Shown here piece by piece: positions 1,527 to 16,169 of a DNA stretch of 32,000 bases (its first letter is position 1; the number at the start of each line of letters is the position of its first letter). This DNA is from Acaryochloris thomasi RCC1774 (lineage in GTDB: Bacteria > Cyanobacteriota > Cyanobacteriia > Thermosynechococcales > Thermosynechococcaceae): assembly GCF_003231495.1 (NCBI RefSeq), contig NZ_PQWO01000007.1:234424-266423 (forward strand), written 5' to 3'. The position numbers and the translations under genes were made by a program. Below the pieces are notes generated by a model. It searched no databases. It was not told the DNA's origin and saw only the letters and a program-made list of their open reading frames with translations.

Positions 1527-1733
1527 TCAATTAACGAGAGCCGGATTATTCTCGGAACCGTTGCGAGTCACTTCATTACCTTTGATCTTACGTGTGATCG
1601 AAGAGTGATGGATCTCTTGAACCTTACCCTCCGCTTGTCTGTTTCCCCAGGCCCAAGTGACGTTCTGACCTTTAGCTGCTTTGATAAAAATGAGTGATAA
1701 GCAGACGCGAGCAGCTAGGGGTAAGTATGTCAT
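1527..1733 (-). CDS. small DUF2945-like (hypervirulence-associated TUDOR-type) protein
   Basis: VTWAWGNRQAEGKVQEI...ITRKIKGNEVTRNGSENNPAL resembles the DUF2945 core (W-WG-G-AEGKV...TR.IKG.EV.R). Its ATG (1731-1733) overlaps the TGA (1730-1732) of the upstream gene as ATGA. The hydrophobic 20-aa N-terminal extension is atypical, so the start is uncertain. Confidence 0.5.
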   Translation of the reverse strand: MTYLPLAARVCLSLIFIKAAKGQNVTWAWGNRQAEGKVQEIHHSSITRKIKGNEVTRNGSENNPALVN

Positions 1734-3877
1734 GAGTCTTCTCCTAAGTGGGATTGAAGGATTTTTGTGCGTGGATTGGCGCGGAAGATCTGTCGATGGT
1801 TGCGATCTCGCAAAATATAGTCCCGCAGCCAGCTACTCAGCAGGGCGAAGCGATTGCCGATGCCGGGTAAGTAGTAGAGGTGAATGACGAGCCAAGTTAA
1901 CCATCCCAGCGGTCCGGTCACCTTGATTTTGCTGAGCAAATAAGCCACACCCGCATGACGGGCAATAATCGCGGCGCGTCCTTTATCGAAGTATGAAAAG
2001 GGCTGAGGGTCGCATCCCTGCATCTGCCGCTGGATATTTTTAGCCACTGCGCCCCCCTGCTGGAGTGCTTCGGGGGCCACGCCGATCAGAACTTCATCCC
2101 CCTGTTCAACGTGGGCAACATCTCCAGCCATATACACCGTTGGATAGTGAGCAAGCTGCAGGGTTGGCTCCACGACAACTTTTTGCTGACGAGCGGTGCC
2201 AATTACGCCATCCCAGTCTTCAGGGTGCGACAGGCTGGGTTTATCTGCCAAAACCCCTGCAGTCCAAATGACTGTGGCAGCCGCAATGTGTCTGTTATCG
2301 GAGAGAGCTGTACCTTGGGGCGAGACCGCCGTTACTTTTGTGGATAAACGAACCTCTATCCCACGTCGCTGAAGCTGTCGGAGGGTGTAGCGCCCCAGTG
2401 ATCTGGGCAATCCGGGTAATAGAGTCTCGCCAGACTGAATTAAGAGAATTCGTGCTTTTGACAAATCAAGGTTGGGATAGTCTCGACGAAAGGGCCCCGC
2501 CAATAGCTCTTTAAGTGCGCCTGCTAACTCGATTCCAGTGGGACCACCTCCGACGATCACAAACGTTAGGTACTGAGATTCATTTGTTTGGTCAGCCTGT
2601 TCCAAACTCCAGAGAATTTGGTGACGAAGTGCGATCGCATCCTCCAGGGTCCGCAAGGCAAACGTATGCTCCGGTGCTCCGGGCACTCCCAGAAAACGTG
2701 TTTGGCTCCCCGTTGCCAAAATTAGATAGTCATACTCCAGATCGCCAGTATCGGTGATCACCTGCTGCCTGTCTAAATCGAGCTGCTTTACCGCCCCGAG
2801 CCAAAAGCGACTATGAGGAATGCGCCGGATCCAGTTGCGAATCGGATAGGCAATCACGCTGGGCGCAATGAAGCCGGTGGCAACCTGATAGAGCAGCGGA
2901 ATGAAGGTGTGGTAGTTGTTGCGATCTATGATTACAATCTCAGCTCCGGTTTGAGAGAGCTTTTGGGCCGCTCGGATGCCTGCAAACCCTGCACCGATAA
3001 TCACGATTCGCTGATGATTCTTGGGTGTTGAATGAGTCTGTGAGCCGATCAAGATACTGCCCAGCACAACCCCAGCCCCGATCAGTTGAATTGCGGTGAA
3101 CGTCTCTTGTAAAAAGAAATATCCAATCAGAGAGGCCACTAAGGGGCTGAGCAGTCCCAGATAGGAGGCCGCAGTGGGATTCAACTTTGCGATTCCTCGG
3201 AACCAAAGTGCGTAGGCTAACCCTGTGCCCACTAGACCCAAATAGGCAAATCCCCATAGATTAGCGCGGGTGATCTGCTCAAACGGTCCCTCTGTGACCA
3301 AGGCCACCGGCAATAGCATCAGTCCCCCCACCGTTAGCTGCCATGCCGTGAACACAATCAGAGAAACAGGAGGCTTCCAGCGCTTCACCAGTACGGTCCC
3401 TAGCCCCATAGCGCCCGCACTGGCCAGGGCTGCAATGATGCCTATGCTATCTAGACGTGCGCTGGGGCCAAGCACTAACAGACCCACACCGATAAAGCCC
3501 GCTACTGCTGCAAGAATAGAACGCCTAGAGGGCTGCTCACTCAGAATCATCCAGGCAAATAGCCCGACCAATAAAGGCTGAATCGCTCCGGCTGTGGCGG
3601 CAACGCCCCCTGGAAGGCGATAGGCTGCAATGAACAACAATGCCTGAAAAACGCCAATATTGAGACCCCCTAAAACCAGCATCCGCCACCACCAGATGCC
3701 TTGGGGAAGCTTCCGCAGCCCTATGATTAGCAGCAGTCCTATGGGAAGCGATCGCATCGCGGCCACCAACAACGGATGACCTAATGGCAAAAACTCAGTC
3801 GCCACCACATAGGTTGTCCCCCATGAGATAGGAGCCAGTGCCGTGAGCAGAATGTTGAAGAGGCGAGTTGCTTTCAC
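1730..3877 (-). CDS. in-frame fusion of an EamA/DMT (PecM-like) 10-TM transporter (aa 1-~280) with a type II NADH dehydrogenase, NDH-2 (aa ~290-715)
   Basis: One uninterrupted 715-aa ORF. The N-terminal half shows two EamA-like hydrophobic repeats. After the linker QTHSTPKNHQ come RIVIIGAGFAG (first Rossmann motif), FVIVGGGPTGIELAG (second) and an NDH-2-type C-terminal tail. Confidence 0.75.
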   Translation of the reverse strand: MKATRLFNILLTALAPISWGTTYVVATEFLPLGHPLLVAAMRSLPIGLLLIIGLRKLPQGIWWWRMLVLGGLNIGVFQALLFIAAYRLPGGVAATAGAIQPLLVGLFAWMILSEQPSRRSILAAVAGFIGVGLLVLGPSARLDSIGIIAALASAGAMGLGTVLVKRWKPPVSLIVFTAWQLTVGGLMLLPVALVTEGPFEQITRANLWGFAYLGLVGTGLAYALWFRGIAKLNPTAASYLGLLSPLVASLIGYFFLQETFTAIQLIGAGVVLGSILIGSQTHSTPKNHQRIVIIGAGFAGIRAAQKLSQTGAEIVIIDRNNYHTFIPLLYQVATGFIAPSVIAYPIRNWIRRIPHSRFWLGAVKQLDLDRQQVITDTGDLEYDYLILATGSQTRFLGVPGAPEHTFALRTLEDAIALRHQILWSLEQADQTNESQYLTFVIVGGGPTGIELAGALKELLAGPFRRDYPNLDLSKARILLIQSGETLLPGLPRSLGRYTLRQLQRRGIEVRLSTKVTAVSPQGTALSDNRHIAAATVIWTAGVLADKPSLSHPEDWDGVIGTARQQKVVVEPTLQLAHYPTVYMAGDVAHVEQGDEVLIGVAPEALQQGGAVAKNIQRQMQGCDPQPFSYFDKGRAAIIARHAGVAYLLSKIKVTGPLGWLTWLVIHLYYLPGIGNRFALLSSWLRDYILRDRNHRQIFRANPRTKILQSHLGEDS
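2631..2638. repeat. HIP1 palindrome GCGATCGC (first of 17 exact copies in the window)
   Basis: Exact copies start at 2631, 3748, 3938, 6473, 9113, 14202, 15222, 17486, 17588, 19728, 21244, 22449, 22826, 25015, 27086, 29743 and 29988. Confidence 0.9.
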
Positions 3878-4623
3878 AGATTGACTTCAACCTTAAATTG
3901 ATTTGCCTGGATTGCGGTGGGTGCCCTATTCACGTTAGCGATCGCGTGCTTTATCTGCACACCCTACAGACTTCAGATAGTTGGGTCTTGCACAAAATTG
4001 CGGTCTTTTGTCGATTCGTTGTCACGCTTTCGCATGGCCTGTTTACATATTGGTTGGATCAGAGAAGTCCGCTGATGCCCCTATCGGCTGCTATTGATGA
4101 AAGGGGCGACGCAAAAGTGACGGCTGGCCCTTGAGGGATAATTCTGCTGGGGTTCAGTTCGGGTAGACCCGCATAGTAAATCCGCTTCACATGATCGGTA
4201 CTACAAACCTCATTGACCCACGGATGTTAATAAGGCGACCGACAGTAATTCCACTGTCCTCAGGGACAGCCAAGGAATGACTTAGCCATTGGAGAACCAG
4301 GCATTCGCACCGAATCTCATCGCGACAACCATCGCCAAACCATCGGCACTATCAAGTTTTATTGCGCTCAGCACAATTAAAGGCATATGATATGAGTTCT
4401 AACTTAGAGCCTGTAAAAGCAGGCTGCGTAGGGGTCGTTAATCTTAACAATTACTCTCAAACAAAGCATGGAACATTAATGTGAAGTAGTCATTCACTAT
4501 TTATAGAAACTAAATAAACCCAACATCTTCACAGCACGGTAGGCAAAGGAGTTTAGCTCAGCAGGTAACGTAAAAGATATCACCAGCTAGACAACAACAA
4601 GGCTTTCATCCGCGAAAGAACAT

Positions 4624-4650
4624 CCTCACTTGCTGAGGGACTCTTTTTTT
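4624..4650 (+). terminator. weak hairpin plus T7 run in the long leader upstream of the Roadblock gene (possible terminator or attenuator)
   Basis: cctca(4624-4628)/tgagg(4634-4638) forms a 5-bp stem. It is followed by gactc and ttttttt (4644-4650), and preceded by a second 5-bp hairpin, ctttc...gaaag. The stem is short. Confidence 0.3.
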
Positions 4651-4773
4651 ATTCTCTAGGTATTACTTGTTTATTAAAAGACTTCACGAAGTCTACTGAG
4701 TTCTTGTACTCTGCTTTATCACAATCAGGACTTGGAACATAGCTCAAGATTTACTTGATTAAGGAAATGTCGA

Positions 4774-5889
4774 ATGCTCACAGACCTAGGACAGCTAATC
4801 TATACTAGTTTTCCTGGCGCGGGCTTAAAAAGAGTCTGTAGCAACCAGATACCGCTAGACATTCAAGACGCCTTTCTACATCAAGTTGTTTATAAAAACT
4901 GGAACTCCTATAATCCTCCAAGTTCTGGAGAGCAGGCAGTTTATCTTTATCAGCCAAACTTAGAGAGCTGCATCTTTGGCTGGCTTTATAGTGACAGTAT
5001 TGATGAGCACAATCGCCACATTCCATATTTCCTAGGATATTATCTAGAAAATACCTTGAATACCAGCTATTTACAGCAAGTCCTAACCTGTATACAAAAA
5101 GGACCCATTGGTTTTTGGAACTACAGCAGCGCCCCCGACCAATATCCAAATCTAGTCAGCATTGAAGACGTTAACACTTACGATGCAGCTCGAGAAGGGT
5201 TACATCTTTCATCTGATTTTTGCGATACCCTGCATGTAGATCTGGGCATGGAGAAAGAACTCAATTTCTTTAATTTCTCTAAGCGAGAATCTTCGCAAGC
5301 CATCATCTTAATAGATGAGCATTTAGATAGGGAGGTGGACGATGGAGATAGAGATCTCCTAAGAGAGGAAGAATCAAAAGCAGATGAAAAACCTGCGATA
5401 AATACATCAGAACTAATCGAGCTTATTTTACAGAATCTAATTCAGAAACCGCTCGAAATTCAATCAGCTTTTTTGGTTTCTGCAGAAGGCCAGCTACTTA
5501 CTCCTGCAATGAATATAGATAAAGATAGTGCTCTAATCATCGCGGGAACTATGATTTATTTAGCGCAGAGTACGAGTACAGAGTTACAGTGGGAAAAAAT
5601 CGAAAAAATTTGCATCCAAGGAACAGAAGGATATATGATTTTGGCTTCCTGTACGCCTGATTGTTTTTTACTCATTCAAGCTAATAAGGTACTGATGGGG
5701 CTACTGGATGGGGAAGTCAACCGTGTCATACAAAAGATTAGGGCTATTTTACTGACTCATCAATCTGACACACATTCTTCAGAAGATGAGACAAACATAA
5801 AGAATCTATCTCAAGTGAGCAGCAACTCCAAATCAACAAAAAGCAAGCCTGTCATGTATCGTGGAAATCCCATCCAACGAGAACCTTAA
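4774..5889 (+). CDS. Roadblock/LC7 (MglB-like) domain protein with an unassigned ~175-aa N-terminal domain, an acidic linker and a disordered Ser/Lys tail
   Basis: AAGGAA lies 8 nt upstream of the ATG. Residues ~211-327 (LIELILQNL..IQSAFLVSAEGQLL...ALIIAGTMIYLAQ...IEKICIQGTEGYMILASCTPDCFLLIQANK..MGLLDGEVNRVIQKIRAIL) follow the Roadblock/LC7 pattern. I do not recognise the N-terminal part. Confidence 0.65.
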   Translation: MLTDLGQLIYTSFPGAGLKRVCSNQIPLDIQDAFLHQVVYKNWNSYNPPSSGEQAVYLYQPNLESCIFGWLYSDSIDEHNRHIPYFLGYYLENTLNTSYLQQVLTCIQKGPIGFWNYSSAPDQYPNLVSIEDVNTYDAAREGLHLSSDFCDTLHVDLGMEKELNFFNFSKRESSQAIILIDEHLDREVDDGDRDLLREEESKADEKPAINTSELIELILQNLIQKPLEIQSAFLVSAEGQLLTPAMNIDKDSALIIAGTMIYLAQSTSTELQWEKIEKICIQGTEGYMILASCTPDCFLLIQANKVLMGLLDGEVNRVIQKIRAILLTHQSDTHSSEDETNIKNLSQVSSNSKSTKSKPVMYRGNPIQREP

Positions 5890-6016
5890 CTTCGCTTACT
5901 TTTAAAGTTCTAGGATCACTTCAATATATTTAAAGATAGAAGAAAAAATTTTCCTGTAGCTTTATCTTTCCTATAAAACAAACCTATGGCATAACAAATT
6001 TAGAGGTAGGTTATAG

Positions 6017-7363
6017 ATGTCTAAAACTGCGATTCAATCTCTTAATTTTCTTAGCATTGGCGATCGGGGTGTTGGCAAAACAATTTTCTTGCTGGCCAAC
6101 TACGCTGCACTGCGTCCGAAGTCAGCAGATGCACAGAAACAGGATATATATTTTGATTGCCAAAATGGTAAAGATCGAAAGAATCTTGAATCGCTGTTAG
6201 CGCTAGTCGCTAAAACAGGTCAATATCCACCTCCAACACTTCAAATCACCGACTTTAGATTTGATGTCAAACGCCACAGTTGGCAGGGAGCCAAAGTGCT
6301 GTGCCAGTTTCACTGGTCAGATGTACCTGGAGAGTCTTGTCAATCCTTTGATGCAGAGTTTCAAGCGGTCTTGCAAAAATCCCATGGCTGCTGCTTATTT
6401 CTGGATGCCTACGAGTTGATTCATAATCCGCAGTACCTCGCTCATTTAGAGATGTTAACCAAGCGAGCTGAAGCGATCGCATCTCTAGCCCACCGATATC
6501 AACTCCACTACTCTATTGCCCTGGTTTTGACAAAGTGTGATCTTATTGGTGCGGGTCCCTCAGGCCTGCTGAAGCTAGAAGAAAAGCTGCATCCCTTAAT
6601 TCGTTCCTTGAAAGCCGTCAACGCCAACTATCGCTGCTTCTACTCAGCCATTCCGATCTCTGCCTTTAAAACGCCTACCGTCCTTGAAGCCCACGGGATT
6701 GAAGCGCCGCTGTTATGGTTAGTTACAGAAGCCAGAGCCTCTAGTCGACCCCTTCAAACCCTAGATAAAAGTCTAGATAGTGTTTTGTCAAATTCGGTAG
6801 CCCCCTCCTCCAAGACAACCTCGACGAAGAGCGGCAGTCCTGTTTGGCTTCGTCTCCTAGCGGGGGTTGGTATTTTGGGAGTGTTAACTGGGCTATTTGT
6901 AGGTCTTCGCGCTCTATTGCCTTCCACAGACCCATCACTTTCCTCCAACCCATCGATTCGTAGGCATCAAATTACACTGAAGCGTGATCCCGACAATGTG
7001 GAGGCCACCAGACAGCTCGCGGCAGAATATACAAAACTAGAACAGTACGGTCAAGCCATCCCCCTGCTCGAGAATCTCGCTCAAGAACAGCCTGAAAATC
7101 TCAACTTGCTAACTGAATTAGGTCGACTTTATTTAGTAACAGGACAGTTACAGAAAGAAGAGAATATCTATGACCAGATTTTGCTCCAGGATGAAAGCAA
7201 TATCTTAGCCCTGACAGGTAAGGCTGAGATTTATCTAAAAAAAGGGGAAATTGAAACGGCAAAGTCGCTGTTCGCAGAAGCTGAAGAGCGTGCCCCTTCA
7301 GAAAAGCTGAAGCAGACAATTCGCAAAATAGCCACAGAAAATCTCCAGGCAGCCGAGAAGTAA
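6017..7363 (+). CDS. Ras/MglA-like small GTPase domain fused to one predicted TM helix and C-terminal TPR repeats
   Basis: G1 is GDRGVGKT (aa 15-22), G3 is DVPGE (aa 102-106), G4 is TKCD (aa 172-175) and G5 is SAI (aa 210-212). The hydrophobic stretch LLAGVGILGVLTGLFVGL (aa 280-297) is flanked by Arg. About three TPR-like repeats occupy aa ~325-425. GAGGT lies ~10 nt upstream of the ATG. Confidence 0.7.
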   Translation: MSKTAIQSLNFLSIGDRGVGKTIFLLANYAALRPKSADAQKQDIYFDCQNGKDRKNLESLLALVAKTGQYPPPTLQITDFRFDVKRHSWQGAKVLCQFHWSDVPGESCQSFDAEFQAVLQKSHGCCLFLDAYELIHNPQYLAHLEMLTKRAEAIASLAHRYQLHYSIALVLTKCDLIGAGPSGLLKLEEKLHPLIRSLKAVNANYRCFYSAIPISAFKTPTVLEAHGIEAPLLWLVTEARASSRPLQTLDKSLDSVLSNSVAPSSKTTSTKSGSPVWLRLLAGVGILGVLTGLFVGLRALLPSTDPSLSSNPSIRRHQITLKRDPDNVEATRQLAAEYTKLEQYGQAIPLLENLAQEQPENLNLLTELGRLYLVTGQLQKEENIYDQILLQDESNILALTGKAEIYLKKGEIETAKSLFAEAEERAPSEKLKQTIRKIATENLQAAEK

Positions 7364-7497: not shown

Positions 7498-10359
7498 CTA
7501 GCCATCTGTAAAGCTAGCCTCAATAACATCAGAATCATCGTCGCTAGAGGCTGCTGCTGCGTTCGCTACCGCCTGCTGTGCCTGTGCCTCCAGTTGCGGC
7601 TGAAACTGGAACAGCGAATAGACAACATTACGACGAATCGCAATCATCATTTCTAAGAACAGCTCATAACCTTCGCTCTTATACTCCACAAGCGGATCTT
7701 GCTGGCCGTAGCCCCGCAGCCCTACCGCCTCACGCAGAGCATCCATTTGCTGGAGGTGCTCGCGCCAGAGAGTATCAATTTGCTGCAGAATAAAGAATCG
7801 TTCTGCCTGACGCATGAGTTCTGGCTGAAGCTGATCCACCTCGGCCTCTTTCTTGTCGTAGGCAATCCGGACCTGCTCACGAAGGAACATCTGCATCTCC
7901 GGCATCGATAGATTCTCAAAATGGCTGGGTTCAAGATCCTGCAGGAGGTAGACGAACTCCTTAATCTTCTCCACCATGCTGCCAAGATTCCACTCTTCTG
8001 GCGGTAGTTCTGGGTTGACATAGGCCCCAACAATGTCATCCATTGTTCGCTCAGCGTACTCAATAACCTTCTCTTTGAGATCCTCGCCCTTCAGAACCCT
8101 CAGACGTTCAGCATAGATAGCGCGGCGCTGATTGTTCATCACCTCGTCATACTCAAATACCTGCTTACGAATGTCGTAATAGTAAGTCTCAACCTTCTTT
8201 TGCGCATTCTCTAAGCTGCCGGTGAGAATTCGGGATTCAATGGGCATATCCTCCTCAACACGGAAAGCATCCATGAGGCCGGCAACACGGTCGCCACCAA
8301 AAATCCTTAGCAAATTGTCTTCGAGACTCAGGAAAAACCGCGTTGAACCTGGATCACCTTGACGTCCTGCCCGTCCCCGCAGTTGATTATCAATGCGGCG
8401 AGATTCGTGACGCTCGGTGCCGATAACGTGCAGACCACCTCGCTCTACGACTCGGTCATGCTCCGCGCTGGTCAGGATTTCATACTCACCTTTAACCTGG
8501 TTGTAGACCTCCCGAAGCTTTTGAGTCACAGGGTCATCTGTCGGCGCTTTCTCAGAGGCTACAGCTAGCATCTCCTCAGCCTGCAGCTCTGAAATACTTC
8601 GTTCCCCAAGCTGCTTCACAGCAAAGGCCACCGTACTTTTCAACAGCTCTTCTGTCTTTCCAGATAGCTCTGTCGGATAAATTTCTGGCGCAACCTTCCA
8701 TGTCTTTCGGGCTGTTCCCGTCTGCTGTGCTTCACCGTCTCCAAAGCCTTGCCCCGTTTGCGCATCAGGAACACCTGCCTGCATCATCGACATCGGGTTA
8801 CTATCTTCAGGCTGCACAATACGCGGCATGAAATACTCGCGCACTTTCAAGCGGGCCATATAGTCGACATTTCCGCCCAGAATAATATCAGTTCCACGAC
8901 CTGCCATATTTGTGGCAATAGTCACCGCCCCACCACGGCCTGCTTGCGCAACGATTTCTGACTCTCTTTCTACATTTTCAGGTTTTGCGTTGAGTAGATT
9001 GTGCGGAATATTTTTTTCTAGCAGAAGCTTCGAAAGTACCTCAGATTTCTCAACACTAGTGGTACCGACAAGCACAGGACGACCATCTTCGTGCATCTGA
9101 GCGCACTCAGATGCGATCGCCTGCCACTTGGCTGGCTCAGTTTTATAGACCACATCGGCAATATCCTGTCGCTGATTCTTGCGATTGGTCGGAATAATCG
9201 TGACTTCTAGCTTGTAGATTTTCTCTAATTCAGCTTCCTCTGTCTTTGCCGTTCCCGTCATCCCAGCCAGCTTGGGGTAGAGCAAGAACATATTCTGATA
9301 AGTAATCGTGGCTAAGGTCTGTGTTTCATTCTGAATTTCCACTTTTTCCTTGGCTTCAATCGCTTGATGCAGGCCATCACTCCAGCGTCGCCCGGGCATC
9401 ACCCGCCCCGTAAATTCATCAACGATGACAATTTCGTCATTGCGGATGATGTAGTTAACATCTTTAACAAATAGCTCTTTTGCCTTGATTGCATTGAAGA
9501 CGTAATGAGCCCAGGGATCATTAGGGTCAAACAGATCGTCTACCTTAAGCAGCTTTTCAGCTTCAATGAATCCCTCATCTGCAAGAACAACATTTCTAGC
9601 CTTTTCATCCACTTCGTAATGATCTTCGCTCTGTAGCGCAAACGCGACTCTCGCCGCATCCATATATTTCTCTGTGGGGCGTTCCACTTGGCCTGAGATA
9701 ATTAGCGGAGTGCGAGCCTCATCGATCAGAACAGAGTCCACCTCGTCAATCACGCAGTAGTTAAAGGGACGCTGTACCACCTCCGCCATTGAGGTGGCCA
9801 TATTGTCGCGCAGATAGTCAAATCCCAGCTCACTATTGGTGGCATAGGTAATGTCACAGGCATAGTTCTTTTGCCGCTCATGGGGCTGCATTGATTGCTG
9901 AATCAGGCCCACGCTGAGATTCAAGAAGCGATGAATTTGCCCCATCCATTCTGCATCACGGCGAGCAAGGTAGTCGTTGACGGTAACCGCGTGAACCCCT
10001 TTGCCAGCAAGCGCATTCAAATAAGAAGGCAGAGTTGAAACAAGCGTTTTACCCTCACCCGTTTTCATCTCAGCAATTTGGCCATCGTGCAAAATCATGC
10101 CGCCCAGCAGCTGCACGTCAAAATGTCGGAGCCCCAAGACCCTCACAGATGCTTCTCTAACAACAGCGAATGTCTCCGGCAGTAGTGAGTCTAGAGATTC
10201 TCCCTTCTCAATTCGTTGCTTAAACTCGGCTGTTTTGCCCTGTAAGTCCTGATCTGAAAGGGGCTGAATCTCCTCCTCCAACAAATTGATTTCAACGATA
10301 TCAGGTTGGTATTTCTTGAGCTTACGTTTGTTGGGATCGCCCAGAATGGTTTTCAGCAT
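7498..10359 (-). CDS. secA: preprotein translocase ATPase SecA
   Basis: Full-length 953-aa match to SecA: [10 protein letters not shown] Walker [20 protein letters not shown], and the [10 protein letters not shown] motor motifs. Confidence 0.97.
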
Positions 10360-10860: not shown

Positions 10861-12234
10861 TTATTCGTACTCAGCCATAGACAAAGCAGGCTCTGTCCTA
10901 CGCTCAATACCTTTTTCAAATCCAGCTGCGGCGGCCCGAGCACGACCTGCATGCCAGAGGTGACCGATGAAGAAGAAGAAGGCTAAAGCAAAGTGAGATG
11001 TCGCTAGCCAAGCTCGAGGAGAGACGTAGTTCACTGAGTTAATTTCAGTTGCTACACCACCGACAGAGTTCAAAGAACCCAAAGGAGCGTGGGTCATGTA
11101 TTCAGCCGCACGGCGAGCTTGCCAAGGCTGAATATCACTTCTGAGCTTATTGAGATCTAGACCGTTAGGACCACGAAGTGGCTCTAGCCAAGGACCGCGG
11201 AATTCCCAGAAACGCATGGTCTCACCACCAAAGATGATCTCACCGGTGGGGGAGCGCATGAGATATTTACCCAAACCAGTGGGGCCTTGAGCAGACGCTA
11301 CGTTAGCACCCAATCTTTGGTCACGGATCAAGAAAGTCAAGGCCTGAGCCTGAGATGCTTCTGGACCAGTAGGACCATAGAATTCACTAGGATAAACAGT
11401 GTTGTTGAACCAGACCATGAAGGCGGCGATAAAACCGAAGACACACAGGGCGCCCAAGCTATAGGACAAGTATGCTTCGCCAGACCAGACAAAGGCTTTC
11501 TTAACCCAAGCCCAAGGCTTGGTCAAAATGTGCCAGACGCCACCAAAGATGCAGTGAACGCCTACCCAGATATGGCCACCAACAATATCTTCTAAGTTGT
11601 TGACGCTAACAATCCAGCCTGACTCACCAAAGGGAGAGCGCGTGATGTAGTCCAAGAAAACACCAAAGCTCCAGGTTGGACTGGTCACAACACGGACCTG
11701 GCCACCACCTGGAGCCCAAGTATCGTAGAGACCGCCAAAGAACATGGCTTTCGCCACGAGCAAAAGTGCACCAATTCCGAGAATCACAAGGTGATACCCG
11801 AGAATGGTTGTCATCTTGTCCTTGTCTTCCCAGTCGTAACCAAAGAAGTTGGAATAATCAAGCTGTTCAGGACCACGAATAGCGTGGAATGTTCCACCCA
11901 AACCTAAAACGAAGGAAGCAATCAGGTGAATTGCGCCAACGGCAAAGAATGGAAATGTATTGATAATTTCTCCGCCTGCACCCACGCCCAAGCCAAGAGA
12001 GGCGAGGTGAGGAAGAAGGATACAGCCCTGTTCATACATGGGCTTCTCAGGGATCAGATGAGCTGTCTCAAACAGCGTCATACCACCTGCCCAAAAAACG
12101 ATTAGGCCAGCGTGGGCAACATGAGCGCCAAGTAGACGACCCGATACTGCGATCAGGCGAGCGTTACCCGCCCACCAGGCAAAACCTGTCGATGGCCGGT
12201 CATAGCCAGCGGTTTGATTAGAGAGCGTTACCAC
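10861..12234 (-). CDS. psbC: photosystem II CP43 chlorophyll apoprotein
   Basis: Start placed at the GTG at 12232-12234 (VTLSNQ...[14 protein letters not shown]). This gives the classical overlap with psbD, 17 nt here. The upstream ATGs in the track ORF (12345, 12270) add non-conserved residues. Confidence 0.95.
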
Positions 12235-13273
12235 GCGGTAGTACCTCCTCTGGGAAGATGAAGTTTTCATGGGGCTGGTCTTGCGGTGCCATCCAGGCAC
12301 GCAGACCTTCGTTGAGCAGAATGTTCTTGGTGTAGAACGTCTCAAACTCAGGGTCTTCTGCCGCTCTGACTTCCTGAGAGATGAAGTCGTAGCTACGCAG
12401 GTTCAAAGCAATACCTACAATTCCAATCGATGCCATCCACAGGCCTGTAACAGGCACAAACAGCATGAAGAAGTGCAGCCAGCGCTTGTTGGAGAAAGCA
12501 ATACCGAAAATCTGTGACCAGAATCGGTTCGCTGTGACCATTGAATAGGTCTCTTCTGCTTGAGTCGGGTTGAAGGCACCAAAGGTGCTCGACTCTGAAC
12601 CGTCTTCAAACAAGGTGTTCTCAACCGTGGCACCGTGAATCGCACACAGAAGTGCGCCACCCAAGACACCGGCAACGCCCATCATGTGAAAGGGGTTGAG
12701 GGTGAAGTTGTGGAAACCTTGAACAAACAGAATGAATCTGAAAATACCCGCCACACCAAAGCTCGGTGCAAAGAACCAGCTCGACTGGCCCAAGGGGTAC
12801 ATCAAAAAGACTGAGACAAAAACTGCAATGGGTGCACTGAAGGCGATGGCGTTGTAAGGACGCACGCCAACAAGACGCGCAATCTCAAACTGACGCAGCA
12901 TGAAGCCCACCAGTGAAATGGCACCGTGCAGTGCCACAAAAGTCCACAGGCCGCCCAGCTGGAACCAGCGGGTCAGGTTACCCTGTGCTTCGGGTCCCCA
13001 AGGTAGCAAGAGGGAGTGCCCCAAGCTATCTGGAGGTGTGGAAATGGCAACGGTCAAAAAGTTGCAGCCCTCTAGGTAAGAACTGGCAAGACCGTGGGAA
13101 TACCAAGATGTAACGAAGGTTGTGCCGGTAAACCATCCACCCAGTGCCAAAAAGGCGGTGGGGAATAGTAAAACGCCGGACCAACCAATAAAGACGAACC
13201 GATCACGCTTGAGCCAGTCGTCGAGGACGTCAAACCATCCTCTCTCCTGGGCGCGTCCGACTGCTATGGTCAT
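12218..13273 (-). CDS. psbD: photosystem II D2 protein
   Basis: Start at the ATG 13271-13273 ([26 protein letters not shown]...), ending ...[12 protein letters not shown]. The track ORF start at 13318 adds 15 non-conserved residues. Confidence 0.97.
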
Positions 13274-15480: not shown

Positions 15481-15885
15481 CTAGGAAGCAAGCTGCTTTT
15501 GCTCGTTCTCCAAAACATGAATCAGGTTTTGGTTACCTTGAGTCCGAGCAACGCTCAAGCGGCGCTCTAGATTTTTCTGAATGGACAGATTGTGGACTTT
15601 CTCTAGCTCTGACTGGACTCGATGACGATCGGTGAGCACGGCAACAGGGACCATACTGGCATCACGCGCTACGGATTCAACCGAACGACTGGCGATCTGT
15701 CCGCCGAGACCAGGCATGTATGCAACACCCCGATACTTGAGCGTCACTCTAGGATGAGAAGCAGCAATATCAAAGTGAGAACGACGGCAGGTCCGTCCCC
15801 GGTAGCGACCAATGACCTCAGAGGTTGTAGCCACTGCCGTAAAAGGGGTAAAGCGATATTTAACGCCTCGATAAGAAAGATTCAT
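15481..15885 (-). CDS. DUF4278 domain protein (cyanobacterial YRG-repeat family)
   Basis: Track ORF trimmed to the ATG at 15883-15885, with GGAGG ~10 nt upstream. The product starts MNLSYRGVKYRF and has further YRG motifs (IGRYRGRT, LKYRGVAY). Its LERRLSVARTQGNQNLIHVLENE tail is typical of the family. Confidence 0.7.
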   Translation of the reverse strand: MNLSYRGVKYRFTPFTAVATTSEVIGRYRGRTCRRSHFDIAASHPRVTLKYRGVAYMPGLGGQIASRSVESVARDASMVPVAVLTDRHRVQSELEKVHNLSIQKNLERRLSVARTQGNQNLIHVLENEQKQLAS

Positions 15886-16169
15886 GGAAATGCGGCCTCC
15901 GACCAATAATGTAAATGAGGCGCGTTCCTTCGGGAAAATCCCTACTTCCGTCTTATTCAACGACGAGCTTTTGAGCAAATGAAAAAGAATCTCAAGTCTA
16001 CGCTAAACAAGATGAACGACTTTTCTGTATCTAATGATACCCTTTATTTCTAAAATCGTGCTTAAGGTCTATTCATCTTCAAGTTAAAGTTGCCCTAAGC
16101 TTTGATATGTCAGCAATTTAGGGCTGTGAAGATTTCAGACGTTCAGAGATTCCTGTCGCTGGGCAAGGA

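Follow-up and report, generated by a model that had tools for sequence, protein, structure and literature searches.

A cyanobacterial gene pair linking a new N-terminal domain to a predicted membrane-held DO-GTPase2-type GTPase as a candidate signalling module

Accounts of bacterial signalling usually revolve around histidine and Ser/Thr kinases, cyclic nucleotides and pairs of sigma and anti-sigma factors. Switches in which a GTPase is coupled to a membrane sensor are uncommon in bacteria and little understood. MglA is a single-domain, soluble GTPase of the Ras superfamily whose catalytic Gln (xxxGQ) is repositioned by MglB, and the Streptomyces conservon comprises a sensor kinase-like membrane protein (CvnA), the Roadblock protein CvnB, the DUF742 protein CvnC and the GTPase CvnD. 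The closest described system to the gene pair analyzed here is formed by the DO-GTPase/GAP1 "GTPase-centric" conflict systems (Kaur, Burroughs, Iyer & Aravind, eLife 2020; PMC7159879). Their DO-GTPases carry a conserved Glu in Walker B, and the GAP1 protein, which consists of GAP1-N1 or GAP1-N2, GAP1-M and GAP1-C, is encoded next to the GTPase and bears variable C-terminal modules; the systems were reported to be nearly absent from cyanobacteria (PMC7159879).

We analyzed two genes, A and B, on the forward strand of a 32,000-nucleotide stretch of DNA, here referred to as the window, whose products are identical to C1752_02890 (A) and C1752_02891 (B) of Acaryochloris thomasi RCC1774. According to the list of open reading frames (ORFs), gene A (positions 4774..5889) encodes 371 amino acids (aa) and gene B (6017..7363) encodes 448 aa, and the two are separated by an AT-rich spacer of 127 nucleotides (nt; 5890..6016), exactly as given in a preliminary description of this DNA. 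The spacer holds a GAGG ribosome-binding site 12 nt 5′ of the ATG of gene B, and no terminator-like site was found in it. The pair is flanked in the window by an EamA/NDH-2-like ORF and secA. The preliminary description had proposed an N-terminal extension plus Roadblock domain for A and a GTPase plus transmembrane (TM) helix plus TPR repeats for B, and could name no system with this architecture; both folds proved to be real, and our literature search found no description of such a module either.

The Roadblock/LC7 domain of A (5401..5766; aa 210 to 331) was recognized by phmmer, AF2 and Foldseek. Robl_LC7 (PF03259) was the only Pfam family that matched full-length A, with a score of 21.2 bits, slightly below the cut-off of 23 (E value of 2.5 × 10−4), and several orthologues exceeded this cut-off (e.g., P0007 with 24.3 bits and L024 with 25.9 bits). 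A phmmer search against the PDB retrieved the Roadblock chains 9jue (E value of 6 × 10−6) and 7f8m (9 × 10−6) as well as CvnB5 (3leq; 8.5 × 10−4). The AF2 model of aa 211 to 331 (pLDDT of ~90) contains the elements H-E-(E)-H-E-E-E-H, and Foldseek matched the model of A to 9jue, 7f8m and 3kye with an E value of 2.5 × 10−8, target TM scores of 0.80 to 0.84 and an rmsd of ~2.1 Å, and to MglB and LAMTOR2 with target TM scores of 0.70 to 0.81. We are confident that the modelled segment of aa 210 to 331 has the Roadblock fold. The acidic linker and disordered tail noted before were also seen in the AF2 model: the linker (5284..5400; aa 171 to 209) has a pLDDT of <50 and varies in length and sequence among homologues, and the tail, disordered over aa 331 to 359, ends in a YRGN motif (5857..5868; aa 362 to 365). 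In a survey of the last 30 aa, the pattern [YF]RG[NRK] was present in 36 of the 53 Roadblock-type family members and in none of the 127 others.

The N-terminal domain of A, here referred to as A_N, spans positions 4774..5283 (aa 1 to 170) and was modelled with a pLDDT of ~90. None of 13 family members tested matched a Pfam family at an E value of ≤10, and a sequence search of the PDB gave no match to A_N. A search among 1.84 × 10^9 protein representatives yielded 182 clusters at an E value of ≤1 × 10−3 and 180 at ≤1 × 10−10. Their proteins, at present annotated as "hypothetical", "WD40 repeat" or "TPR", carry the domain at or near the N terminus and share the invariant motifs QLxYTS, FGWLY, D77..R81..PYF and GP. 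By sequence criteria, A_N is a discrete, sharply bounded and cyanobacteria-restricted new domain family. What follows A_N varies: among 150 representatives, we found Roadblock (23), WD40 (24), caspase (20), periplasmic binding-protein (~14) and GAF (2) modules, and Roadblock is in some proteins combined with V4R. A single TM helix follows A_N in 86 of the 150 and precedes the WD40 and periplasmic solute-binding domains. Roadblock can thus be exchanged for any of several other modules behind A_N and, because it sits in this variable slot, its role in A is not readable from the family.

The longin fold is a three-layer sandwich of the order β2-α-β3-α(2). In the AF2 model, A_N consists of E2-13, E17-22, H28-42, E54-62, E65-76, E82-91 and H97-109, that is, β-β-α-β-β-β-α, which we take to be the order of longin domains. 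This order of modelled secondary-structure elements suggests that A_N is possibly longin-like. The Foldseek list obtained with the whole model of A was filled by Roadblock matches, and hhalign gave a probability of 2.5% for the alignment of A_N with the Roadblock domain of A itself. Eukaryotic and Asgard longin-Roadblock platforms (Ragulator-Rag, Mon1-Ccz1, DENN, GATOR1) offer a comparison, since the Roadblock domain of A is closest to the Asgard chains 9jue and 7f8m and to LAMTOR2; if A_N were longin-like, A would resemble these platforms further as a tandem of a longin-like and a Roadblock domain encoded beside a membrane GTPase. They differ in that B is not a Rag, Rab or Arf protein and that A_N has no sequence similarity to longin domains. 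A bacterial longin-plus-Roadblock tandem next to a GTPase would bear on the origin of eukaryotic GTPase-regulator platforms.

The GTPase domain of B (6035..6739; aa 7 to 241; Pfam, Foldseek) contains G1 (GDRGVGKT, 6059-6082), switch-I (YPPPT), G3 (DVPGE, 6320-6334) and G4 (TKCD, 6530-6541). The family preserves G1, G3, G4 and the switch-I Thr intact and without variation, so that B looks like a working GTPase as judged from its motifs. The isolated G domain (aa 1 to 243) matched the Pfam family DO-GTPase2 (PF19993) with 28.0 bits (cut-off of 27). All 14 diverse relatives of B matched DO-GTPase2 (best E value of 2.5 × 10−8), and within this set of 14 none matched the Ras, Arf or Roc profiles, only DO-GTPase2/1. 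In addition, the family has an invariant Glu (Glu106 of DVPGE) at the position of Ras Q61 and an invariant Arg (position 17) at the equivalent of Ras G12. Foldseek aligned the domain with the EF-Tu G domain, Cdc42, Rab and Arl6 at E values of ~1 × 10−5, and the small-GTPase matches, at 12 to 15% identity, were no better than that to EF-Tu. Hence, of the "Ras-like GTPase" proposed previously the GTPase fold was borne out and the Ras-like character was not, DO-GTPase2 being the only consistent GTPase family in Pfam. Assignment of B to the Ras/MglA type was ruled out by these Pfam matches, by the Glu that replaces the catalytic Gln and by the Arg at the G12 position.

Downstream of the GTPase domain, hydropathy and the positive-inside rule predict a TM helix with N-in/C-out orientation (6848..6916; aa 278 to 300), followed by a TPR domain of eight helices (6950..7357; aa 312 to 447). 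The TPR assignment is supported by TPR_19 (41.6 bits, cut-off of 25) and TPR_17 (35.6 bits, cut-off of 24.4), by a pLDDT of >90 for the helices in the AF2 model and by Foldseek matches to consensus TPR and MamA. Across the GTPase family, Lys and Arg residues flanking the TM helix average 2.9 on the N-terminal and 1.3 on the C-terminal side, with more charges on the N-terminal side in 104 members and fewer in 8. From these charge statistics the TPR domain of B is predicted to be extracytoplasmic, and the N-terminal domains of both the A_N and B families are predicted to be cytoplasmic; for A_N this location is independently indicated because the solute-binding domains that follow the TM helix are of the periplasmic type. 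According to the predicted topology, TPR repeats lie across the membrane from the GTPase domain in about one quarter of the GTPase family members, including B of the window.

Synteny of the A and B genes extends to many other genomes. Among 72 nonredundant A_N genes, 49 have a B-type GTPase gene within 600 bp on the same strand, with a median gap of 80 nt, and the GTPase gene lies upstream of the A_N gene in 34 of these pairs and downstream in 15. The remaining 23 A_N genes have no adjacent GTPase gene, which is partly owing to short contigs, and solitary B-type GTPases also exist (e.g., L001). Adjacency was found for 30 of 42 non-Roadblock A_N genes versus 19 of 30 Roadblock-type ones, and for this reason the pairing of Roadblock with a GTPase is not the conserved unit; on this sequence survey, the conserved partner of the B-type GTPase is A_N. 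The distance matrices of A_N and the adjacent GTPases were correlated (Mantel r = 0.80; 0 of 2,000 permutations), a value inflated by shared species history, and the nearest-neighbor partner was concordant in 41 of 48 pairs. The module spans Gloeobacterales to Nostocales and all its named relatives are cyanobacterial; single genomes can contain several paralogous pairs (two loci in A. marina and three in Thermosynechococcaceae al_S4C752_1). No A_N-GTPase fusion protein occurred in the data examined and no third gene family was universally conserved across 77 loci. About one-fifth of the loci adjoin a C39-peptidase ABC exporter and peptide-gene arrays.

What we observed for the pair thus concerns its folds, motifs, family limits, adjacency, co-variation, modularity and topology statistics. 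Since an unannotated pair of A_N and a membrane GTPase recurs, it looks like an undescribed module rather than a copy of MglA/MglB, and we lean, with some reserve, toward regarding A-B as one copy of a cyanobacterial two-gene signalling module consisting of a sensor and a membrane GTPase. The retention of the pair and its downstream synteny in a sister genome, the terminator-free spacer and the want of a conserved third gene speak for such a module; the A_N genes with no neighbouring GTPase gene, the solitary GTPases and the absence of A_N-GTPase fusions from the data speak against it. We infer that A and B make contact, that one regulates the other (as GAP, GEF or effector) and that the pair conveys a signal and serves a cellular role. 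B would be a DO-GTPase2-type TRAFAC GTPase held in the membrane by its C-terminal TM helix, with the G domain in the cytoplasm, and would cycle there between GTP and GDP states. A_N would be its cognate, co-evolving partner, through which A may bind the G domain and set or read its nucleotide state, and the C-terminal part of A would be a sensor or output module. At this locus, the TPR domain of B might act as the outward input domain and A as a soluble adaptor, its Roadblock domain serving either, like that of MglB, as a further surface for GTPase regulation or as a dimerization platform.

A broader proposal, which we put forward only tentatively, is that A_N/GTPase pairs constitute an unrecognized, cyanobacteria-specific form of transmembrane signalling of the "receptor plus membrane G protein" kind, in which extracytoplasmic (periplasmic solute-binding, WD40, TPR) or cytoplasmic (GAF, V4R, Roadblock) sensors would control a DO-GTPase2 switch via the possibly longin-like A_N as GEF or GAP. 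The exporters and peptide arrays that adjoin about one-fifth of the loci suggest that the TPR-bearing members might receive a secreted double-glycine peptide as their outside input. The locus leads to a family of ~180 clusters in which one new domain links varied sensor modules to one type of membrane GTPase. If the signalling model is right, a new domain family is defined, DO-GTPase systems extend into a phylum thought to be devoid of them, and a testable route opens to the sensing of periplasmic or lumenal ligands by cyanobacteria.

Rather unlikely, in our judgement, though the strongest of the competing explanations, is a conflict system of the DO-GTPase/GAP1 kind, directed against invaders or executing programmed cell death, with the GTPase as a threshold-setting switch, the A_N protein in the role of GAP1, the caspase- and repeat-containing members as effector bearers and the present locus without an obvious effector. 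B belongs to the same Pfam family and shares its hallmark, a Glu that is conserved behind the Gly of Walker B; some of the described GTPases are likewise TM anchored with extracytoplasmic domains. A constant partner is encoded beside the GTPase, in most loci downstream of it, with highly variable C-terminal domains that include TM helices, as in GAP1, and in both systems the two components appear to co-evolve. The caspase, WD40 and TPR modules, the multiple paralogous pairs per genome and the slightly higher AT content of family genes relative to their neighbors also agree with such a function. However, no resemblance of A_N to GAP1-N1, GAP1-N2, GAP1-M, GAP1-C or any other Pfam model was detected at the sequence level. 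The ORF list and Pfam revealed no second GTPase, FNIII, GASH or zinc ribbons at the A-B locus, and the A_N module in general lacks the FNIII/GASH third component and the N-terminal zinc ribbons and usually has a single GTPase. Whereas the modules of GAP1 are tubulin, HSP70, kinase and nucleotide-targeting effectors, those of A_N are, apart from caspase, mostly sensors (periplasmic binding, GAF, V4R, WD40, TPR, Roadblock), many of them for environmental ligands (periplasmic solute-binding, ANF-receptor type, GAF, V4R) and not toxins or sensors of invaders. Moreover, the A-B locus carries no effector domain, PADLOC detected nothing except a weak TPR match, and the family resides on chromosomes, A_N having no copies on plasmids, and is confined to the very phylum reported to be nearly devoid of the described systems. 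As a point against our own reading, the caspase and WD40/TPR members and the membership of B in DO-GTPase2 are as compatible with a conflict or cell-death system as with environmental signalling.

We consider it improbable that A-B is a polarity or motility switch of the MglA/MglB type (Myxococcus, Thermus), in which the Roadblock protein would act as a GAP for a small Ras-like B in polarity or phototactic motility. This logic, invoked in the preliminary description, held insofar as the same strand encodes, side by side, a P-loop GTPase and a Roadblock/LC7 protein whose Roadblock domain superposes on MglB; Acaryochloris and Thermosynechococcaceae show this pairing repeatedly, and Roadblock-GTPase operons are an established theme. 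It failed with respect to the MglA type and to Roadblock as the conserved unit. Unlike MglA, B is a 448-aa membrane-anchored protein of another family, with TPR repeats, an Arg in the P loop and an invariant Glu instead of the catalytic Gln. In A, the 170 aa at the N terminus form the domain that is the true conserved partner, the GTPase pairs as often with A_N proteins devoid of Roadblock, most members of the A_N family do without that domain, and the ORF list of the window shows no motility, pilus or Frz-like genes near the pair. The Streptomyces conservon resembles the pair in combining a membrane sensor, a Roadblock protein and a GTPase in a presumed signalling unit, and the Roadblock domain of A matches both CvnB5 and that of S. 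avermitilis (3kye). In contrast to the conservon, A-B comprises only two genes with unrelated flanking genes, has neither a histidine kinase-like CvnA nor a DUF742 protein and employs another GTPase family, and the sensors of the A_N module form part of the GTPase polypeptide or of the A_N protein.

The base composition of the locus had been taken as foreign. A GC dip exists, as gene A (GC of 0.401, GC3 of 0.366) is the lowest of the 25 genes of the window (others, 0.444 to 0.546; gene B, 0.466), and HIP1 is indeed missing from gene A; neither demonstrates a foreign origin. Against a recent insertion, a sister genome holds the same low-GC pair with its downstream synteny (A-B-secA...), and the absence of HIP1 is not significant with 0.59 copies expected (17 in the window; P(0) = 0.55), gene B having one at 6473. 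It is very improbable that A-B is a recently acquired island whose adjacency is functionally meaningless: the low GC content and the upstream flank, in which the two sister genomes diverge from a breakpoint near 4298, would agree with this, but the adjacency recurs in Gloeobacterales, Nostocales, Chroococcidiopsidales, Leptolyngbyaceae and Acaryochloridaceae, and no tRNA gene, integrase, flanking repeats or plasmid copy were found for the locus.

Upstream of gene A, the 896 bp (3878-4773) described previously as free of a credible ORF contained only short and unconvincing ones, and a search of Rfam gave no match to positions 4298..4773. The 896-bp region is not featureless: these same positions form a conserved noncoding leader on the forward strand that is homologous to the sister-genome contig L082 (89% overall in the nucleotide comparison), possibly a promoter/5′-untranslated region or a small RNA. 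The leader includes a terminator-like hairpin with a T-run at 4623-4650, and its segment 4350-4480 is almost identical in the sister genome, exceeding coding DNA in conservation.

The two open reading frames (ORFs) of the locus were recovered exactly as the preliminary description had given them. Gene A occupies positions 4774 to 5889 of the plus strand and encodes 371 amino acids (aa), gene B occupies positions 6017 to 7363 of the same strand and encodes 448 aa, and the gap between them is 127 nt; their products are identical to C1752_02890 and C1752_02891, respectively, of Acaryochloris thomasi RCC1774. The 896 bp upstream of gene A, previously noted to lack a credible ORF, indeed contained only short and unconvincing ones. 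The neighbors, both on the minus strand, are a membrane/NDH-2-like ORF of 715 aa (1730 to 3877) upstream and secA (7498 to 10359) downstream. By translation only, the 715-aa ORF is an apparent fusion of an EamA-like multi-pass membrane N-terminal half and an NDH-2-type flavoprotein C-terminal half. Our analysis revealed that the pair belongs, as a genuine and hitherto unannotated member, to a module spread across the cyanobacteria, which is composed of a GTPase and a protein with a distinctive N-terminal domain of about 170 aa, here referred to as A_N.

Protein A had been described as a Roadblock protein, and the combined profile, phmmer, AF2 and Foldseek evidence showed this call to be correct. 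The Pfam profile Robl_LC7 scored 21.2 bits, slightly under its cut-off of 23, and phmmer matched A to Roadblock structures in the PDB (9jue, E value of 6e-6; 7f8m, 9e-6; CvnB5 3leq, 8.5e-4). An AF2 model built from 26 homologues was confident (pLDDT about 90) at residues 1 to 170 and 210 to 331, with disorder in the acidic linker (171 to 209) and the tail (331 to 359). In Foldseek searches, residues ~210 to 331 superposed on Asgard, Streptomyces, MglB and LAMTOR2 Roadblock structures (E value of 2.5e-8, target TM score of about 0.8), and the top 50 matches of full-length A were almost all Roadblock proteins. TagF of Acinetobacter baylyi (9t0n), a two-domain regulator of type VI secretion, also matched over 345 columns (E value of 3.7e-5); the TM score was 0.2 and the rmsd 20.7 Å, and the match may reflect a common two-domain alpha+beta arrangement or noise. 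Because the TagF paper describes neither a Roadblock nor a longin fold, this match was set aside. Searches of NCBIfam and PADLOC returned nothing for A. After the disordered tail, A carries a C-terminal motif, [YF]RG[NRK] (aa 362 to 365; 5857 to 5868, plus strand), that is specific to the Roadblock type, being present in 36 of 53 Roadblock-type A_N proteins and in none of 127 others. Thermosynechococcaceae loci have a stand-alone Roadblock paralogue, divergent beside gene A and 45 to 47% identical to its Roadblock domain (L006, 5336 to 5698, and L007, 26 to 391, both minus strand); A and this paralogue might form heterodimers. In Brasilonema and Scytonema, homologues of the Roadblock and tail part have neither A_N nor a nearby GTPase.

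Among homologues of A, the best-conserved part was A_N, with the motifs QLxYTS, FGWLY, D77..R81..PYF and GP. A profile of A_N searched exhaustively against 1.84 billion representative proteins matched 182 clusters at E values of ≤1e-3, of which 180 were at ≤1e-10, leaving no twilight tail. In all 150 listed matches the domain lay at or near the N terminus; its first residue fell among residues 1 to 40 in every match but one, in which it was residue 98. Pfam searches with 13 A_N domains at E values of ≤10 gave scattered single matches only, GAP1-N, longin, TRADD-N and BLUF being absent, and an hmmsearch of the PDB with the profile gave only chance-level matches to the ryanodine receptor and CFT1. 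Family members were named 'hypothetical', 'WD40 repeat', 'TPR' or 'GTPase SAR1 family' throughout. Judged by these searches, A_N is a new and sharply bounded domain family. An hhalign comparison of A_N with A's own Roadblock domain returned a probability of 2.5%, so that no internal duplication was detectable in A. The AF2 model predicts the element order b-b-a-b-b-b-a, which is that of longin domains. Longin and Roadblock domains have been reported as related through circular permutation, and a longin-like A_N is a lead only.

What follows A_N varies. Among the best 150 representatives of the 182 clusters, 23 carried a C-terminal Roadblock domain (one together with V4R), 24 a WD40 propeller, nearly always after a transmembrane (TM) helix and in 11 cases with a caspase domain, 20 a caspase domain, about 14 periplasmic solute-binding domains after a TM helix (PBP_like_2, Phosphonate-bd or Peripla_BP_6/ANF_receptor) and two GAF; exactly one TM helix followed A_N in 86, whatever the module. 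Thus, Roadblock is one alternative among several in a variable slot, whose modules are mostly ligand-binding or sensor domains.

In protein B, the GTPase motifs are intact (G1 GDRGVGKT, switch-I YPPPT, G3 DVPGE and G4 TKCD), and the previously described fusion to a membrane helix and TPR repeats held up: a single hydrophobic helix (aa 278 to 300) precedes eight TPR helices (312 to 447). Foldseek related the G domain to TRAFAC GTPases in general, with EF-Tu, Cdc42, Rab and Arl6 all at E values of about 1e-5 and 12 to 17% identity. When isolated, this domain exceeded the Pfam cut-off for DO-GTPase2 (28.0 versus 27 bits); DO-GTPase2 was also matched by 14 of 14 diverse relatives, and Ras, Arf and Roc by none of them. 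Across the family, Glu is invariant after the G3 glycine, the position of Gln61 in Ras, and Arg is invariant at the second variable P-loop position, that of Gly12 in Ras. The conserved Glu is a hallmark of DO-GTPases (Kaur et al. 2020). Therefore, the earlier labels 'Ras-like' and 'MglA-like' are inaccurate for B. NCBIfam and PADLOC gave only TPR-type matches.

The membrane topology was predicted from charge distribution. In the GTPase family (131 members), Lys and Arg together averaged 2.9 in the 15-residue stretch preceding the TM helix and 1.3 after it, with an N-side excess in 104 and a C-side excess in 8. The A_N proteins with a TM helix had the same bias (53 versus 8), and the periplasmic-type binding domains behind their helices independently support an N-in/C-out orientation. 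The prediction for B is therefore a cytoplasmic GTPase domain and a TPR domain in the periplasm or lumen. Of 133 GTPases, 90 end shortly after the TM helix and 35, including B, run on into TPR.

We scanned one genome per species with the alignment of A homologues and obtained 77 loci, from Gloeobacterales to Nostocales, many matching only A_N. Carriers of a pair include Nostoc sp. PCC 7524 (around Nos7524_1040) and Leptolyngbya sp. NIES-3755. All were cyanobacterial except three metagenome-assembled contigs, two assigned to other phyla (L023 and L029) and one labelled only 'uncultured bacterium' (L019). The labels on L023, L029 and a further family protein, P0335, are Candidatus Gracilibacteria, Crocinitomicaceae and Gemmatimonadaceae; mis-binning seems likely, given their close relationship to Hydrococcus-type pairs and their origin in datasets from cyanobacterial mats. 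By tblastn and ORF calling, the loci yielded 72 non-redundant A_N genes, 49 of which were accompanied, on the same strand and no more than 600 bp away, by a gene for a B-type GTPase (median gap, 80 nt), which lay upstream in 34 cases and downstream in 15. The preliminary description took Roadblock plus GTPase as the unit, whereas it is A_N that tracks the GTPase, without a Roadblock domain (30/42) as well as with one (19/30). Pairwise distances between A_N domains correlated with those between the adjacent GTPase domains (r = 0.80; none of 2,000 permutations as high), and in 41 of 48 pairs the partner of the nearest A_N relative ranked within the three closest GTPases. The history that the species have in common contributes to this correlation, yet several genomes carry more than one paralogous pair. 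In the 77 loci, no further gene family was universally linked to the pair, and a Rosetta-stone search for proteins that fuse A_N to the GTPase found none. In about 16 of the 77 loci, from several cyanobacterial orders, a Peptidase_C39 ABC exporter is encoded no more than 8 kb from the pair, in most cases with an HlyD-like protein (L002, L004, L009-L015, L013, L017, L034, L041, L045, L057 and L065; only the HlyD-like gene in L017), and tandem genes for ~77-aa 'CTB' peptides (PF28158) are often present there. In the A. marina group, gene A is immediately preceded by a peptide-like ORF of ~105 aa. No C39-ABC/HlyD/peptide cluster is present in the window.

The best-supported reading of the pair, which we hold to be somewhat better than an even bet, is a sensor-coupled membrane G-protein switch. 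It would be a two-component, nucleotide-dependent switch at the membrane, in which the GTPase would be the constant element, A_N would be the cognate partner on the cytoplasmic side, and the variable modules would serve as inputs or outputs. At the A/B locus, the predicted outward-facing domain is the TPR part of the GTPase, and the A_N protein is soluble and carries Roadblock; A_N of A would contact the G domain of B, with Roadblock as an extra regulatory or dimerization surface. MglB acts by repositioning MglA's own Arg and Gln. The catalytic make-up of B, with a P-loop Arg17 and Glu106 and no Gln, argues against such a mechanism and recalls GTPases that are activated by dimerization or by a residue supplied by a partner. 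The invariant Arg81 of A_N, in a loop (D77-x3-R81), is a candidate arginine finger.

The closest described system is that of the DO-GTPase/GAP1 conflict systems (Kaur et al. 2020). Common to both are the GTPase Pfam family, frequent membrane association and a partner encoded beside the GTPase, usually downstream, whose C-terminal modules vary; A_N was not GAP1 in any sequence test, and the FNIII/GASH components, zinc ribbons and second GTPase are missing here. A conflict or cell-death role of the pair appears unlikely. A true MglAB-type polarity switch is highly improbable, since of the MglB/MglA logic first proposed the Roadblock fold and the GTPase beside it stood but the GTPase family and the conserved unit differ, leaving only the Roadblock-GTPase theme in common with MglA/MglB and the Streptomyces conservons. 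Consistent with the initial impression that no named system has this architecture, the A_N/GTPase pair did not turn up in searches of the literature. We rate the A/B module as a variant of GTPase-centric systems containing a new domain.

The locus had also been considered compositionally foreign. A drop in GC content is indeed present, to 0.401 (GC3, 0.366) in gene A; the other 24 ORFs of the window span 0.444 to 0.546, and the value for gene B is 0.466. Family-wide, A genes were only 1.7% and B genes only 3.1% lower than their neighbors, so the pronounced dip at this locus is a local one. In a sister genome with 89% nucleotide identity, the same low-GC pair stands ahead of secA, a PCP_red gene and photosystem genes; homology sets in at window position 4298, and the difference is thus confined to the upstream flank. 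We found no tRNA genes, no meaningful flanking repeats and no plasmid copies of A_N, cyanobacterial plasmids giving only two distant GTPase matches, and gene B contains a HIP1 site. The absence of HIP1 from gene A, taken earlier as a sign of foreignness, is expected by chance in 1.1 kb (Poisson, P = 0.55). Collectively, these data do not support a recent foreign island, and an old transfer of the pair within cyanobacteria is conceivable.

The region upstream of gene A (4298 to 4773) is conserved in the sister-genome contig, and positions 4350 to 4480 are nearly identical, exceeding coding DNA in conservation. A terminator-like hairpin with a T-run lies at 4623 to 4650 (plus strand) and is retained, shifted, in the sister genome. 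Rfam gave no credible match within 3850 to 4800. A 30-aa ORF (4392 to 4484) differs from the sister genome by six nonsynonymous changes and one synonymous change, which makes a coding role improbable. A long leader, an attenuator and an sRNA are candidate identities for the region. Elsewhere in the window, Rfam identified the IsrR antisense RNA (134 bits) at 11646 to 11832 (plus strand), opposite a CP43-like ORF at 10861 to 12345 (minus strand) that is probably isiA. A glutamine riboswitch of the glnA-leader type (Rfam, 49 bits) was found at 15919 to 16020 (minus strand), overlapping the 5′ part of a 165-aa ORF as listed with a TTG start (15481 to 15978).
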